Notes: generated by a model not told the origin, from the letters alone. Numbered from the stretch's first letter, positions 11,189 to 36,502 are shown. The stretch: 37,625 nucleotides of DNA from Thermoplasmata archaeon (GCA_028703755.1 JAQVMG010000002.1:1-37625), one strand, 5' to 3'. Numbers and translations: made by a program.

Positions 11189-11647
11189 CGGTATGGGACA
11201 GAATAAATTGTGATATTAAGCTTGCCCTCGGTAATCTCATCGTTCTTTGATTGCCGATTACCGAGAAGACGGTTGATGGTGTTTGCTTCTTTTCTGCCCC
11301 ATCAACGGCGAATGCTCTTTATCGCAATTATTCAATTACCGCATTCACCTATTGCCATTAATATGCAAATGTATGGTGCTGGATTCAGCTAAATAATTCT
11401 CCGCACCATAGTCGAATGCGCTGTAAATAAATGATGATAGCCGCATTCAACACTTTTGTGTTCAATAATTTAACATGCGGTTCAAATCTCAATTCAACAG
11501 GCCATTCAGTTCTCCGTTTCTTCCCCTATTCAACACCTCTTGTGATACCCACCTGTGCAGGTTTTATTGTAACTATTATTAACCAATTTAATATACGCCT
11601 GCCTAACGATATCAAATAACTGGCTGTTTTGGCACAATCTCGATAAG

Positions 11648-26489: not shown

Positions 26490-26727
26490 CAACATGCCCC
26501 GTCTGAATGTTATAATATAGGTAGCTTGAGGGCGGGGTTCTGTTAGTTCATATTATTGAGTGACCGCATATTTGGAGCAAAAACGCATTTTGTTAGCCGG
26601 TTTCGGGTGCCCCGTCTGTAAGGGCGGGGGGGTGAGGTACTCGCCTGGCAGGAAAGCCAGGTGAAACACATTTGTTAACTCTAACAATGAGGCGTCTCAT
26701 TCACCCTTCGCGTTGCTATTGCTTAAA
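26490..26727 (+). repeat. Candidate structured RNA / repeat element, copy A
   Basis: There is no credible ORF. Three GC hairpins are present: 26497-26504/26530-26537, 26610-26617/26622-26629 with a GUAA loop, and 26642-26649/26656-26663. The element aligns by eye over its full length with the reverse complement of 29105-29340. Confidence 0.7.
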
Positions 26728-29104: not shown

Positions 29105-29340
29105 GTTCTTGACAATTGGGGAACGAAGTTTGAACGAAACGTATCTGTGCTAGAGCTGAGAAAATGATGATTGCCTGGCTTGTGTTAGCCAGGCAAGTAC
29201 CTGACATCCCCGCCCCTGCGGAGGCGGGGTTTTCCAATACAGAGCAACAGAATGCCCCAGAATGCCTGTCACCCATACAGCCAATAATATGAAACCCCGC
29301 CCTAATAAAACACTGTAAAAATGCCAGGCGGGGCATGCTG
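29105..29340 (-). repeat. Candidate structured RNA / repeat element, copy B (inverted relative to copy A)
   Basis: The minus strand carries the same ordered blocks and three hairpins as copy A: + coordinates 29295-29302/29326-29333, 29208-29214/29223-29229, and 29171-29180/29187-29196. The loops differ from those of copy A. Confidence 0.7.
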
Positions 29341-32800: not shown

Positions 32801-32826
32801 TGTGCGATATATCCGGATTCACCTGT

Positions 32827-32899
32827 GCGGATGTGATCTAGTTGGCTAGGATTCAAGCTTCCCAAGCTTGCTGCTCGGGTTCAAATCCCGGCATCCGCA
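32827..32899 (+). tRNA. tRNA-Gly (anticodon CCC), 73 nt, no encoded CCA, no intron
   Basis: I folded this by hand. The acceptor stem is GCGGAUG/CAUCCGC (7 perfect bp). The D stem is AUCU/GGAU with an AGUUGGCUA loop. The anticodon stem is CAAGC/GCUUG with the loop UU-CCC-AA. The T arm is UCGGG-UUCAAAU-CCCGG and the discriminator is A. A T-run follows. Confidence 0.9.
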
Positions 32900-33089
32900 T
32901 CTTTTTCTTCACGTCATTCTCATAAGTAGGCAGAAAAAGATGCTCTAGAATGATAATATACGCCTAATACTTAGTGATATCAGAATCAATTCGTATTAGG
33001 CTGGCCGAGAATTATAAGACCATATTAATTTCTAAGCATATAATTCGAGTGCGACGAATTCGCCTATCGCATTTATCTGCAGAGAATTC

Positions 33090-33144
33090 GTCAGCACCGC
33101 CAAACTAGCGACTATTACATTTAGTTACAAAGTCTGTTTGGCGG
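33090..33144 (+). repeat. 55-nt hairpin repeat, copy 1 (GTCAGCACCGCCAAAC...GTTTGGCGG)
   Basis: This copy is 55/55 identical to 33241-33295. It contains a 9-bp inverted repeat CCGCCAAAC/GTTTGGCGG with a further GACU/AGUC pairing inside. Confidence 0.85.
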
Positions 33145-33240
33145 GTAAGTGCATGGAGTCGTTTCTATCTATCTTCGTCGGTGTATTCGTCTTCTCTCGG
33201 TCTATTGCGGAGAATACGCCAGAGTGAAGACCTCGAGCGC

Positions 33241-33295
33241 GTCAGCACCGCCAAACTAGCGACTATTACATTTAGTTACAAAGTCTGTTTGGCGG
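33241..33295 (+). repeat. 55-nt hairpin repeat, copy 2
   Basis: This copy is identical to copy 1 and lies 151 nt downstream in direct orientation. Confidence 0.85.
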
Positions 33296-33436
33296 ATATC
33301 CTTTCTAGCATAGAATCGTTTCCAATCATCTTTTACATCCTGGCATATGTATTTTCTTTTGTATTCCATCTCCATAATTTATTTATAGTGTCAAATGTAA
33401 TGCCATTATGCAAAATAATTGCAGAAGGTTTAAAAA

Positions 33437-36400
33437 ATGAACTGGAGAGCAGCACTGATTGTGAGCTTGTTATTGACCAGCACGATAGTACTTGGGTCAA
33501 ACGCGGCAGCCGCGCCATTCACAGGCACTGTGATTCTGTATGACGGCACGTACCATGCCCAGGACTATTTTGAACCGTCCGACGACATCTATTTTGATGT
33601 GACGGTCTACGATGCGGGAGCGCCTGCACAGTACGAGGCAGTGAATGTTGTAATTGTTGGCGACGGAATCATCGGCGAGGTCTTCAATGACACATACACA
33701 ACTGACAGTTACGGCCAATTTTCCGGCTATGACGGCGATGACTTCTGGTACACGCATGATATCGGCGATTACGTCATGTATGTGAACGTAACCAACGCAA
33801 GTGCGGTTGCACACCCGTTCACGATATACGACGCGGTTCCGTGGGAAGCAACCGGGTGGACAGAGAATTACGACGATGATGTGACCGACATATTCACCGA
33901 GGACCAGACCGTATACCTCTATTTCCAGGTCCTTGACCAGTTCGGAAACCCGTTCGACGGCTCCTCCTGGGATGTAACATACCAGATAATGCACAACGGC
34001 TATTCTGTCGATTCCGGCGGATTGGCCACAAATGTTTCCGGCGGCGACAGTGAGTATTACTATACATATTATGAATACGCCGACCAATTCGGCCTCTACA
34101 ACGTCCAGGTATTCAATTCCGCCTCTCCGCCCGATCAGATAGGCGAGTTCAACTTCACAGTTATCCTTCCCGAGGTTGCAATTGTCAGGCCGCAGTACTT
34201 CGGCACTGACAGAAGCGTCTTCGTTCCCGGCGAGAATGTCGGATACTCTGTCCAGCTTCTGTACGATGTCACAGAGACATACGACAGTGACAGCTACGCG
34301 ACAAGAATCGTCCTCTTCAAGCAGGGCACACCCGGCACACTTGCCAATGACACACTCTCAACCAACGACGTTGGCTACACATACGATTATTATTTCTACA
34401 GTATCGGCAGCTCGGACACATACAAGGGAACATACCACATACAGGTATTCACCCATGAATGGGACCTGATAGGGTCCGCGACGTTCATGGTCATTGATCT
34501 GGACATCGCGATACTGCCGGAGAAATCAGTGTATGCCCAGGGCGACGAAGTTGTGATCGAGATAACGACATCCCTTGAAGACCCCTATGAAGTTCAGATA
34601 GCCAACAGCGCGCATATCGAGCTCGAGGATTCGTCATGGAACGTACCGGCTCACTCGACCGAGTGGGTCCGCGACTACACGATGCCGAACGAGGATGACG
34701 GTTATTACTATGTGGACGTATACGTCGACAGCCTGAGAGTCGGCTCCTACGGTTTCGAACTGAAGAAATTCACCATAGAAGCAAGGCTGAGCAGCAGCAA
34801 TCTCCTTCCGGGCCAGACCGCAACCGTGTTCTGGAGAGCCGTTGACAACCACGACGGAGGGCCCATCAGCATCGACGGTGAAACCCATATGTTCTATTAT
34901 GACGACTCTTACCTCTACGTCACAGACACGCTGGACGACATCGCCGGATCCTCAGGAAGCTTTGCATTCACCGTTCCGAACGATGCATACATTGGCGGAT
35001 ACGGCGGAATCACCATTGATGCAGAGGACTCAAGCGAGCACTTTGATTCAACGACTGTACAGTTCCAGGTCGGTTCCCTGTACGTCTCCGTGACCACCGA
35101 CAGAACCTCATACCGGCCGGGCGAATCAGTGTACATGACATTCTCATCCCGTGTGCAGGGCACATCCACCATGGTCCCGGACGTCGGGATCAGGGCGGAA
35201 GTTCAGCACAATGATGACAGGGTCGGCTCCAGCTGGACAATGGACACAAACAACGGCGGATATGTGGATTATGTTTTCACCATCCCAAGCGAGGCTGCGG
35301 ATGGCACATACATCATAATCATAAACGCCACATTCAACCCGAACAGCGACATGACTTATGACGGCACAGGTGATTTCACTGTGACCTCGGACCCGTACAT
35401 ATCGCTCATTCTCTACCAGGAGAAGGCTTTCTATGCCCCGGGCGACACCGTGAATGTGCCCTACAGGGTTCTTAGGGACGGCGTCGAGACAACCGATGCC
35501 CAGGTGTCTTACGAAGCAGAAATCGGAAATGGCGGTTGGGGCGACATGACCATTGCCCTAGGATTTGGCAGCGGGGGCTCATTCAGCATTTCCCTTCCCG
35601 CCGGAGTCGAGGGCATATTGAGTATATCCGCCATGGCGCTCACAACAGACGGTTTCACAGCCGGTGATTACCTTTCCAACATCGAAGTTTCCAGCGGCCA
35701 ACTCGTTCTCTTCACTTCCAAGAGTGCCTACATGCCGGGCGAAACAATCAACTGGTTCTACATGCTGAACGGCGACACCGAGACAAGCGCTTACTACCGC
35801 ATTCTGGATCCGACTGGGGCGTTACTCGCGGAAGGCACACCTACAACTGGTAACTTCAGCTACACGCTTCCGCTCGAATATGCAGTGAACCCGACAGCAT
35901 ACCTCTATGTTGTGGGCGGTTCTGGAACCTACATCGGCTACGATATTGCATATGTCTACTCCGGGTACCTGATTGATTTCAGCATACTCAGTGAATCGTA
36001 TGCGCCGGGCGACATGATGCAGATCAACTACACGATAATTAAGATCGGTGAAGGCCCAGATGAAGCAAACGGCTTCATGATTTATATATCCATAAGGGGC
36101 GAACGCGTTGATCAGATATGGGTAACCGAGATGTTCGGCACTCTCCAGTACCAGATACCCGCCGATATCCGCGACGGAACCCACATAGTCGAGGTGTCCC
36201 TTTCCGATTACGACGAACAAACACAGACTGTGATTATTGACTCGGATGCAGGAAGCCTTGCCTACGGCACCATAATGGGCATGAATGCGGGTGCATTCAT
36301 CGTCCTGATACTGGCCATAATCGCACTGGTGATAGCCATAATCGGCGTCGTTAAGTTCAGAAAGCTGGCCAAGAGATTGGACGCTGTGGAATCCCCGGAA

Positions 36401-36502
36401 CCCGAGGCAGATGAGCCCGAAGCCCCCGAGGCTCCGGAAAGCCCGGATGCCCAGGACGGGACATACCCCCCGCCGCCACCGCCTGAACAATACAACCCGT
36501 GA
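33437..36502 (+). CDS. Large surface protein with a signal peptide, about 9-10 MG/Ig-like beta-sandwich repeats, a TM anchor and an acidic, proline-rich cytoplasmic tail
   Basis: The signal peptide is MNWRAALIVSLLLTSTIVLGSNAAAAP. A motif Y/F-x-P-G-E/D-x-V recurs about every 100 aa (FVPGENVGY, YAQGDEVVI, LLPGQTATV, YRPGESVYM, YAPGDTVNV, YMPGETINW, YAPGDMMQI), as in macroglobulin-type MG domains. The TM helix is AFIVLILAIIALVIAIIGVV. The tail runs ...PEPEADEPEAPEAPESPDAQDGTYPPPPPPEQYNP. Confidence 0.8.
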   Translation: MNWRAALIVSLLLTSTIVLGSNAAAAPFTGTVILYDGTYHAQDYFEPSDDIYFDVTVYDAGAPAQYEAVNVVIVGDGIIGEVFNDTYTTDSYGQFSGYDGDDFWYTHDIGDYVMYVNVTNASAVAHPFTIYDAVPWEATGWTENYDDDVTDIFTEDQTVYLYFQVLDQFGNPFDGSSWDVTYQIMHNGYSVDSGGLATNVSGGDSEYYYTYYEYADQFGLYNVQVFNSASPPDQIGEFNFTVILPEVAIVRPQYFGTDRSVFVPGENVGYSVQLLYDVTETYDSDSYATRIVLFKQGTPGTLANDTLSTNDVGYTYDYYFYSIGSSDTYKGTYHIQVFTHEWDLIGSATFMVIDLDIAILPEKSVYAQGDEVVIEITTSLEDPYEVQIANSAHIELEDSSWNVPAHSTEWVRDYTMPNEDDGYYYVDVYVDSLRVGSYGFELKKFTIEARLSSSNLLPGQTATVFWRAVDNHDGGPISIDGETHMFYYDDSYLYVTDTLDDIAGSSGSFAFTVPNDAYIGGYGGITIDAEDSSEHFDSTTVQFQVGSLYVSVTTDRTSYRPGESVYMTFSSRVQGTSTMVPDVGIRAEVQHNDDRVGSSWTMDTNNGGYVDYVFTIPSEAADGTYIIIINATFNPNSDMTYDGTGDFTVTSDPYISLILYQEKAFYAPGDTVNVPYRVLRDGVETTDAQVSYEAEIGNGGWGDMTIALGFGSGGSFSISLPAGVEGILSISAMALTTDGFTAGDYLSNIEVSSGQLVLFTSKSAYMPGETINWFYMLNGDTETSAYYRILDPTGALLAEGTPTTGNFSYTLPLEYAVNPTAYLYVVGGSGTYIGYDIAYVYSGYLIDFSILSESYAPGDMMQINYTIIKIGEGPDEANGFMIYISIRGERVDQIWVTEMFGTLQYQIPADIRDGTHIVEVSLSDYDEQTQTVIIDSDAGSLAYGTIMGMNAGAFIVLILAIIALVIAIIGVVKFRKLAKRLDAVESPEPEADEPEAPEAPESPDAQDGTYPPPPPPEQYNP

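Follow-up and report, generated by a model that had tools for sequence, protein, structure and literature searches.

Hairpin modules behind a tRNA-Gly gene of a Thermoplasmata archaeon belong to a dispersed repeat family at the 3′ flanks of stable-RNA genes

In a 37,625-nt stretch of DNA from a Thermoplasmata archaeon (GCA_028703755.1, JAQVMG010000002.1:1-37625; contig C71 of a 1.63 Mb genome in 172 contigs, hereafter the window), a run of long-stemmed hairpins occupies the interval between a tRNA-Gly gene and the gene for a 1021-aa surface protein, and the question raised by this locus is what these hairpins are. A first, sequence-only reading had considered a regulatory DNA array in front of the surface-protein gene and a cluster of small RNAs (sRNAs). 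What that reading missed is that the elements are members of a family scattered over the genome and associated with the 3′ flanks of stable-RNA genes. According to what we regard as the best reading, the array is a patchwork of small hairpin modules, part of a lineage-specific family that resides behind such genes.

The run itself was non-random, as had been proposed. Between positions 32897 and 33345, five inverted repeats paired perfectly over 9 bp or more around loops of 15–32 nt, whereas 1000 dinucleotide shuffles gave 0.025 on average and 2 at most, and the region folded as RNA at −132 kcal/mol versus −106±5.6 kcal/mol for shuffled sequences (z=−4.6). Hairpins a, b and c lay exactly where they had been placed, with the stems and loops described, and hairpin c could indeed be extended to 13 bp with one bulge, a bulged A. 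The coordinates of hairpin d were also correct, while its 9-bp stem proved to consist of eight Watson–Crick pairs and one T.G. Three further hairpins of like geometry were present in the region, namely hairpin e and two core hairpins inside a 59-nt repeat. However, the geometry is not particular to the tRNA-Gly region, as a genome-wide search returned 499 such inverted repeats, versus 168 in a block-shuffled genome, and 23 % of the 499 fell in the 2.5 % of the genome around stable-RNA genes.

The dispersed element, termed family 1, is a unit of ~110–150 nt composed of hairpin c, a 59-nt core hairpin, a conserved tail and hairpin d. In the alignment, hairpin c was followed by a spacer of 3–5 nt, the core stem, a short variable spacer and the tail, and in a subset of copies by d. 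The core stem encloses the invariant TAGCGA ... AGTCT plus a variable loop, the tail has the consensus GCTCTnGCA..GAnnCGTTTCTnTCAnnCTTCGCATTGCATTC, and the d module reads GGCGTATTC ... GAATACGCC. The position of hairpin c was occupied in 65 of 81 aligned copies, with stems of 9–12 bp and loops of 12–28 nt (mostly 15–17 or 21–25), and most copies carried CGTCAGC before the core stem, CGTC being there the end of the 3′ arm of hairpin c. Copies occurred singly or in tandem arrays of two to four.

At the tRNA-Gly locus, where these modules all lie on the + strand, the head module c spans 33053..33092 (arms 33053-33061/33084-33092; 9 bp, loop 22; GnCGAAnnC - loop - GnnTTCGnC) and ends 4 nt before the start of the core stem. 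Core copy 1 (33089..33147) has a 9-bp stem, CCGCCAAAC/GTTTGGCGG (33097-33105/33136-33144), with a loop of 30 nt, and is followed by tail copy 1 (33148..33179; ..GCAtGGAgtCGTTTCTaTC..CTTCG..), which is conserved in family 1, and by hairpin d (33180..33220; arms 33180-33188/33212-33220; GGTGTATTC / GAATACGCC). Core copy 2 (33240..33298; stem 33248-33256/33287-33295, 9 bp, loop 30; 88 bits) is identical to copy 1 at 58 of 59 positions, and tail copy 2 (33299..33332) has diverged. A perfect version of d, GGCGTATTC/GAATACGCC, was found after the tail at C161 (twice), at C139 and at the tRNA-Pro and tRNA-Gln loci of relatives. Interleaved with d as A-B-A′-B′ is a weaker inverted repeat, d′ (CTCGGTCT / AGACC..CGAG; 33196-33203 / 33228-37, window 33196-33237), which is a perfect 10-bp repeat in the relative locus L105; the pair would be an H-type pseudoknot as RNA and two mutually exclusive hairpins as DNA.

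An array at C161:5153-5540 matched window positions 33005-33333 with 80 % identity over 330 nt; it is built of a tandem unit core-tail-d-spacer, with c at its head only. The imperfect tandem duplication described for the tRNA-Gly region is real and has a 151-nt period, but its register had been set wrongly, the repeated unit being core-tail-d-spacer here as well. Because the C161 array carries c only at the head of that unit, c and d are not duplication counterparts. The two had been taken for homologous heads with aligned loops, and the loops agree at only ~8 of 22 positions (ungapped pairing, counted by eye), so that the compensatory changes read between them are invalid; paired substitutions do exist between the true homologues of c, of d and of the core.

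When the region and 16 paralogous loci were scanned against Rfam, only tRNA, rRNA and signal recognition particle (SRP) genes were returned, with no match to the element, and a search of the literature on Methanomassiliicoccales repeats found no relevant title or abstract. K-turn, H/ACA, C/D-box and bulge-helix-bulge motifs were tried for the core hairpin and misfitted the consensus by eye on both strands. The tail module was common to family 1 and to a second family built on a GC-rich hairpin, so that different hairpins share one tail; positions 26637-26720 (+) and 29114-29174 (−) of the window, which gave weak matches to the family 1 covariance model by way of the tail, are members of this GC-rich hairpin family.

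Family 1 was widely dispersed in its own genome. BLAST and nhmmer recovered at least 17 copies, and a covariance model of core plus tail recovered 46, with 17 loci scoring at least 50 bits (strong loci). Other members of the genus carried 9–43 copies per genome and other genera of the same GTDB family 1–6, the hosts being uncultured Methanomassiliicoccales/Thermoplasmata known from metagenome-assembled genomes (MAGs), while no copy was found in 28 genomes searched outside that family (other families, orders and the class). At thirteen of the 17 strong loci, a tRNA, 5S, 23S or SRP RNA gene stood on the same strand no more than 400 nt upstream. These genes comprised ten tRNAs (Gly, Pro, Ala twice, Asn, Met, His, Val, one intron-containing and one weak), the 5S rRNA, the 3′ end of the 23S rRNA and the SRP RNA (C59), and the probability of this link by chance was ~1e-17 or lower, even counting only 15 % of the genome as available. 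As for the other four, the C139 locus lies beside tRNA-Pro in inverted orientation, C41 follows a non-coding stretch of ~470 nt, and no RNA gene was found near C161 or C112. Two other repeat families of the genome showed no link to tRNA genes.

The same arrangement was observed in relatives, whose loci were drawn from at least eight MAGs (UBA147, UBA280, ERP119294_co1_428, CWP4-2.bin.83 and others). Of 41 copies near a tRNA gene, 36 were downstream on the same strand and the remaining five upstream on the opposite strand, also pointing away from the gene, and none had either of the other two configurations; the first copy started at a median of 82 nt from the tRNA end. In the best assembled congener (G003), copies also followed the SRP RNA (at 65 nt) and the 23S rRNA.

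Two of these loci hold further features. The non-coding stretch at C41 (C41:7985-8450, −) lies downstream of a very basic 35-codon open reading frame (ORF; MKRSSRVWKKRGQQRWKWRKKK...), contains a weak C/D-box (sR3) match and ends in a T-run/A-run palindrome, after which the family 1 copy begins; a locus of G003 (L153) likewise has a weak sR3 match, to which a family 1 copy is placed as at C41, and the C41 stretch is probably an unannotated stable RNA or sRNA cluster. Downstream of tRNA-Pro(GGG), past the family 1 tail, CGGCGTATTCGCCGTAGCCCGTCGATTTGAACTGGAGTCGGGCCCGGTGA was conserved across four species (C139:2290-2440; L087, L112, L116).

What precedes family 1 at these sites is a palindrome of the type of hairpin a. 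The tRNA-Gly(CCC) gene (32826..32901, +; ARAGORN, Rfam tRNA 60 bits) has no encoded CCA, and its last nucleotides plus an oligo-T (GCATCTTTTTCT) pair with AGAAAAAGATGC, 23 nt downstream, forming hairpin a (32897..32943; arms 32897-32908/32932-32943; 12 bp, loop 23). The oligo-T, TCTTTTTCTT, starts at the last base of the tRNA and is thus a run of at least five T directly after the RNA gene, and T-runs like it followed most stable-RNA genes whose 3′ flanks were displayed. Nearly every stable-RNA gene examined, in this genome and at orthologous loci, ended in such a palindrome, in which arm 1 consists of the last 2–4 nucleotides of the RNA plus oligo-T and arm 2 is the complement, 20–25 nt downstream; the arms are RNA-specific, and at the 5S rRNA the stem reaches 15 bp. 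Since it is a palindrome, hairpin a presents a T-run on either strand, and we predict it to be the oligo-T terminator of tRNA-Gly, possibly a bidirectional one. At most loci hairpin c started 2–5 nt past the A-run arm of a, which is the ancestral arrangement; at tRNA-Gly the b and e modules are intercalated between a and c.

Such regularity could mean that family 1 is a host cis-element of stable-RNA units, namely a fail-safe terminator, pause site or insulator behind the oligo-T, acting through a protein roadblock on the AAACTAGCGA...AGTCTGTTT hairpin or through hairpins in read-through RNA. The strict position directly behind hairpin a, the shared orientation and the occurrence behind 5S, 23S and SRP RNA argue for this explanation, as does the presence of family 1 at the same tRNAs in at least five species, with locus-specific stems, invariant motifs and randomised loops. 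However, family 1 itself has no T-run of five or more, the known archaeal intrinsic signal, many tRNAs are without it, the tRNA-Gly of the relative G005 does without it, and its range is limited to one GTDB family; moreover, the C161 and C112 copies have no RNA gene nearby and the C139 copy is reversed. We therefore hold a host cis-element to be a tentative possibility, worth keeping in view and clearly less probable than the account preferred below.

The pairing of the stems was strongly conserved. Across the 81 aligned copies the core stem was 95.6 % paired and 6 of its 11 pairs showed changes on both sides, giving 83 double-change cells and a covariation score that was reached by none of 500 shuffles; the stems of hairpin c were locus-specific and compensated. 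Nearly all changes went from Watson–Crick to Watson–Crick, including C-G to A-T, without a wobble intermediate: G.T/T.G pairs numbered 2 in the core and 6 in c, and A.C/C.A mismatches 4 and 16, respectively. These changes are not what an RNA helix formed by the element's strand would leave, and the pattern fits DNA hairpins, single-stranded or cruciform, or the correction of quasi-palindromes. An RNA role is less likely because the double changes are of the Watson–Crick kind, with almost no G-U pairs.

This bears on the proposal that each unit is an sRNA gene, in which a TATA-like loop of hairpin c would drive a transcript from the core hairpin through the tail. Most c loops do contain a GCATATATC- or CATTTATC-like sequence located ~23 nt before the core stem, the fold of the region is more stable than those of its shuffles (z=−4.6), and a 522-nt contig of one metatranscriptome (X23), which otherwise yielded only tRNA pieces, holds the core and tail of a relative. 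That contig could, however, be DNA or read-through, a GC-rich subclass of c loops has no TATA-like sequence, and the units have neither a B recognition element nor an oligo-T terminator; near-absent G-U, A.C mismatches at least as common as G.T, and the missing Rfam match also speak against sRNA genes, which we consider an improbable explanation. A 24-codon hydrophobic ORF starting from an ATG in tail copy 1 was likewise rejected as a peptide product of the unit, since other copies conserve neither this ATG nor its frame.

Copies behind the same tRNA in different genomes were on average 74 % identical, as compared with 66 % for copies behind different tRNAs within one genome. In orthologous copies the loop interiors were randomised, while AAACTAGCGA, AGTCTGTTT and the pairing were kept and the stems were locus-specific. 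The difference in identity, together with the retention of motifs and pairing, indicates that most copies are old, vertically inherited and under purifying selection.

The tRNA-Gly locus itself shows turnover. The relatives G004, G006 and G007 carry a-, b- and e-type modules there, together with partial copies of the tRNA-Gly 3′ end, and in G007 the a/b modules lie between perfect 34-nt direct repeats made of the tRNA 3′ end and its trailer; G001 has an inverted tail with a GC-rich hairpin. In G005, the orthologous MG2-domain gene (Pfam) lies ~105 nt past tRNA-Gly(CCC), the whole array being absent, and sequence shared with the window resumes at CCATCTCC..TATA (window ~33366). None of G001, G004, G005, G006 and G007 has a family 1 core at tRNA-Gly. 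The right end of the array (33322..33346, +) consists of CCAATCATCTTTTAC, the 3′ arm of a GTAAAAGATTGG-type hairpin, and then ATCCTGGCAT, a partial copy of the tRNA-Gly 3′ end (ATCCCGGCATCC; 10 nt, one mismatch), and in G004, G006, G007 and C100 a GTAAAAGATTGG-type hairpin likewise precedes a copied 3′ end of the local tRNA. Judged by this likeness, CCAATCATCTTTTAC/ATCCTGGCAT is the remnant of a border such as those in G004, G006 and G007. Given this remnant and the lack of the core in the relatives, we regard the array as a lineage-specific gain after the split from them.

The modules between a and c are also found elsewhere. Hairpin b (GCCTAATAC / GTATTAGGC; 32962..33001, arms 32962-32970/32993-33001; 9 bp, loop 22) follows a linker at 32944-32961, and the segment 32897-33005 has a 77 % identical copy after tRNA-Leu (C100:391-500); b-like hairpins after tRNA-Gly were present in G004, G006 and G007 too. 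Hairpin e (GAATTATA / TATAATTC; 33009..33046, arms 33009-33016/33039-33046; 8 bp, loop 22) has homologues elsewhere in the genome (C100 and C161) as well as behind tRNA-Gly in G004 and G006.

These borders recall attachment sites, and the array could have grown at the tRNA 3′ end, mainly in its a, b and e parts, through tandem accretion or through repeated site-specific integration, since decayed, of small integrase-mobilised elements bracketed by partial tRNA copies. The partial tRNA-Gly copy ATCCTGGCAT at which the array terminates, the 34-nt repeat of G007 and the like copies in G004 and G006 are consistent with such an origin, and nine other tRNAs have copies of their own 3′ ends downstream, several at a period of ~94–98 nt. 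But the explanation suits a, b and e better than family 1, which occurs behind 5S, 23S and SRP RNA as well and at most loci is not bordered by tRNA copies; an integrase gene would by far exceed the size of the units, and the copy in the window's own genome is just 10 nt long with one mismatch. As an account of the array, attachment-site accretion is unlikely.

The nine tRNA genes (on C95, C7, C41, C5, C100, C1, C23, C29 and C119) have one to three partial copies each, 80–350 nt downstream, made up of the 3′ half of the T-arm plus the acceptor and in several cases repeated every 94–98 nt. Each copied unit includes the complement of that end and could form a mini-helix with the acceptor stem of the tRNA. 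In addition, a long hairpin of ~110 nt (type GGGTCCGACC...CATCTATTGAA...GATGG...GGTCGGGCC) sits within the loop of hairpin a after tRNA-Met and tRNA-Pro(GGG) (C92:3313-3450, C139:2208-2310), and after tRNA-Gln in relatives (L078, L092); it terminates in a copy of the tRNA T-arm and the 3′ part of the acceptor.

Downstream of the array, a TATA-like box, TTTATTTATA (33378..33387, +), is the putative promoter element of the surface-protein gene itself. This gene (33437..36502, +) codes for a 1021-aa MG2/alpha-2-macroglobulin-like secreted protein (Pfam MG2, 2e-21) and is a neighbour, outside the element. That the array might be its operator or 5′ leader was suggested by proximity (100–540 nt upstream) and by a half-site spacing of about two to three helical turns, and by nothing else. 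Since the G005 orthologue stands ~105 nt from tRNA-Gly without any array, modules of the same kind recur at 17 or more unrelated loci and the gene has its own TATA box downstream, we conclude that the surface-protein gene is not controlled by the array; the locus-specific regulatory array of the sequence-only reading is accordingly given up, and an operator or leader is very improbable. As G005 has both neighbouring genes without the array, it is dispensable for them there.

A candidate machinery for copying is present in the genome. Contig C77 carries an IS200-type gene for a Y1 transposase (C77:8515-8859, −), the only intact one in the genome, in which the HUH motif reads DHVHLF and the tyrosine lies in YIKGQ; a second, truncated copy is found on the same contig. 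One or two Y1 genes per genome were found in the genus, in most genomes at a syntenic site behind AbrB-like and GyrI-like genes (L131-L135), and eight genomes of the genus were without a TnpB, so that a TnpB/omega-RNA origin was rejected. The Y1 gene is followed by five hairpins with stems of ~9 bp and loops of ~19–22 nt, compensated between copies: H1, GTTGAATGC-N22-GCATTCGAC; H2, GATGGnnCGG-N22-..CCAT; H3, GGTGAATGCG-N22-GCATTCGCC; H4, TGAATCAG..GATTCA; and H5, CCGGTAATC-N19-GATTACCGG. This 227-nt array (family 3) is present in 28 copies in the genome, including window 11229-11451 (−), two of them directly behind the intact and the truncated Y1 genes (C77:7817-8512). Its geometry is that of the tRNA-Gly hairpins, and H3 weakly resembles d, the T.G position included. 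The pattern of the Y1 gene resembles that of a domesticated gene akin to RAYT, the transposase associated with bacterial repetitive extragenic palindromic (REP) sequences, and together with the 227-nt array it looks like an archaeal REP/RAYT-like system or a miniature inverted-repeat transposable element (MITE) system of IS200.

A motif (A)TACTTTCGCCCACCCC is followed 10–15 nt on by a TTTATATA-like sequence (C77 ~9440, 8935 and 7830; L131-L135, L139-L141). It recurs upstream of unrelated genes, in the genus and in other families of the order, and could serve as a binding site for a factor or as an extended promoter element.

We give about an even chance to a composite account, in which the modules are REP/MITE-like hairpin elements working at the DNA level that spread by tandem duplication and occasional Y1-type single-strand or recombinational transfer, and were then retained and conserved. 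Family 1 sits almost only right behind stable-RNA terminators, pointing away from the gene, and b and e belong to modules also placed behind tRNA-Leu in this genome and behind tRNA-Gly in congeners, often beside partial copies of tRNA 3′ ends. The hairpins would act as DNA, either single-stranded or as cruciforms. Copying would proceed by local tandem duplication, with new sites reached occasionally through recombination between common modules or through a single-strand mechanism of the HUH/Y1 type. The preference for stable-RNA genes may arise where heavily transcribed, untranslated genes offer single-stranded DNA and a harmless landing place. After insertion, many copies are passed on vertically, with the core motif and the pairing maintained by selection; the retained copies probably bind a protein, and a secondary role as boundary or terminator is plausible.

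Several results weigh against this account. No target-site duplication, conserved target tetranucleotide or fixed target word was found for the copies. Purifying selection on fixed orthologous copies is not predicted for a purely selfish element and favours a host function, and loops of 15–30 nt are unlike those of bacterial REPs or of the known end hairpins of IS200/IS605. The Y1 gene is flanked by family 3, with no family 1 copy beside it, and nhmmer detected no homology between the two families, the family 3 profile finding its 28 copies and no family 1 locus; because homology is lacking at the profile level, the link between the Y1 gene and family 1 is suggestive only.

Among known systems, several mobile elements target tRNA genes: the TRE elements of Dictyostelium and yeast Ty3 do so, and some bacterial Tn7-like elements and CRISPR-associated transposons insert downstream of tRNA genes. 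Such elements bring genes for machinery of their own and rely on Pol III factors or guide RNAs. Family 1 shares with them the strong preference for a tRNA or stable-RNA flank and the fixed orientation and distance, but no machinery of its own was seen.

Downstream of eukaryotic rRNA genes stand Sal-box/TTF-I or Reb1 terminator arrays and replication-fork barriers. These, too, are orientation-dependent tandem arrays of a short conserved motif behind heavily transcribed stable-RNA genes. A counterpart in archaea would make family 1 a host-selected, orientation-dependent boundary element, on whose invariant AAACTAGCGA...AGTCTGTTT hairpin, close behind the terminators of tRNA, rRNA and SRP-RNA genes, a protein, possibly the domesticated single-copy Y1/HUH protein, would form a roadblock that terminates transcription and/or a polar barrier to replication forks, in the manner of Sal-box/TTF-I or Reb1/Fob1. 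We consider this doubtful, and the likeness is one of analogy only, as the elements described here are known from sequence, are hairpins and are partly mobile.

The resemblance to non-autonomous derivatives of IS200/IS605 (MITEs and palindrome-associated transposable elements) is closer in that a tnpA-type Y1 gene is present, hairpins take the place of terminal inverted repeats, no target duplication is evident and the five-hairpin array of the tnpA side has spread in 28 copies without the gene. Unlike in such derivatives, family 1 has no detectable homology to the tnpA-side ends and no identified target tetranucleotide, there is no TnpB or omega-RNA context, and many family 1 copies are old and fixed.

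Bacterial REPs are 20–40 nt long, have loops of 4–5 nt and a GTAG or CGTC tag, and typically occur as inverted pairs (PMC3733652, PMC5581495). As in REPs, in the bacterial interspersed mosaic elements (BIMEs) and in the REPIN-RAYT systems built on them, the repeats described here are high-copy, extragenic, lineage-restricted hairpins, mostly vertically inherited, mostly downstream of genes and clustered, and a Y1 gene stands at a conserved site with hairpin repeats beside it. CGTC is found at the foot of the family 1 core stem, but within the arm of hairpin c. The differences are that family 1 units measure 110–150 nt and hold several hairpins, with stems of 9–12 bp and loops of 15–30 nt, rather than being short 20–40-nt palindromes with a small loop; that they form direct tandem arrays; that the host is an archaeon; that family 1 is specifically tied to stable-RNA genes; and that the repeats flanking the Y1 gene are not those of family 1.

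For annotation, the locus is a warning that compensatory changes alone do not make a run of hairpins a regulator of the next gene or a set of sRNAs, as double Watson–Crick changes that bypass G-U can also originate in DNA and be maintained there. If the composite account is correct, these archaea have a REP-like system with an unusual multi-hairpin, long-loop architecture and an unusually sharp preference for sites a few dozen nucleotides behind the terminators of tRNA, 5S, 23S and SRP RNA genes. This would raise the questions of whether heavily transcribed, untranslated archaeal genes need or attract special structures at their 3′ borders, and of whether archaeal Y1/HUH transposases have been domesticated together with hairpin repeats, as the RAYTs have been in bacteria.

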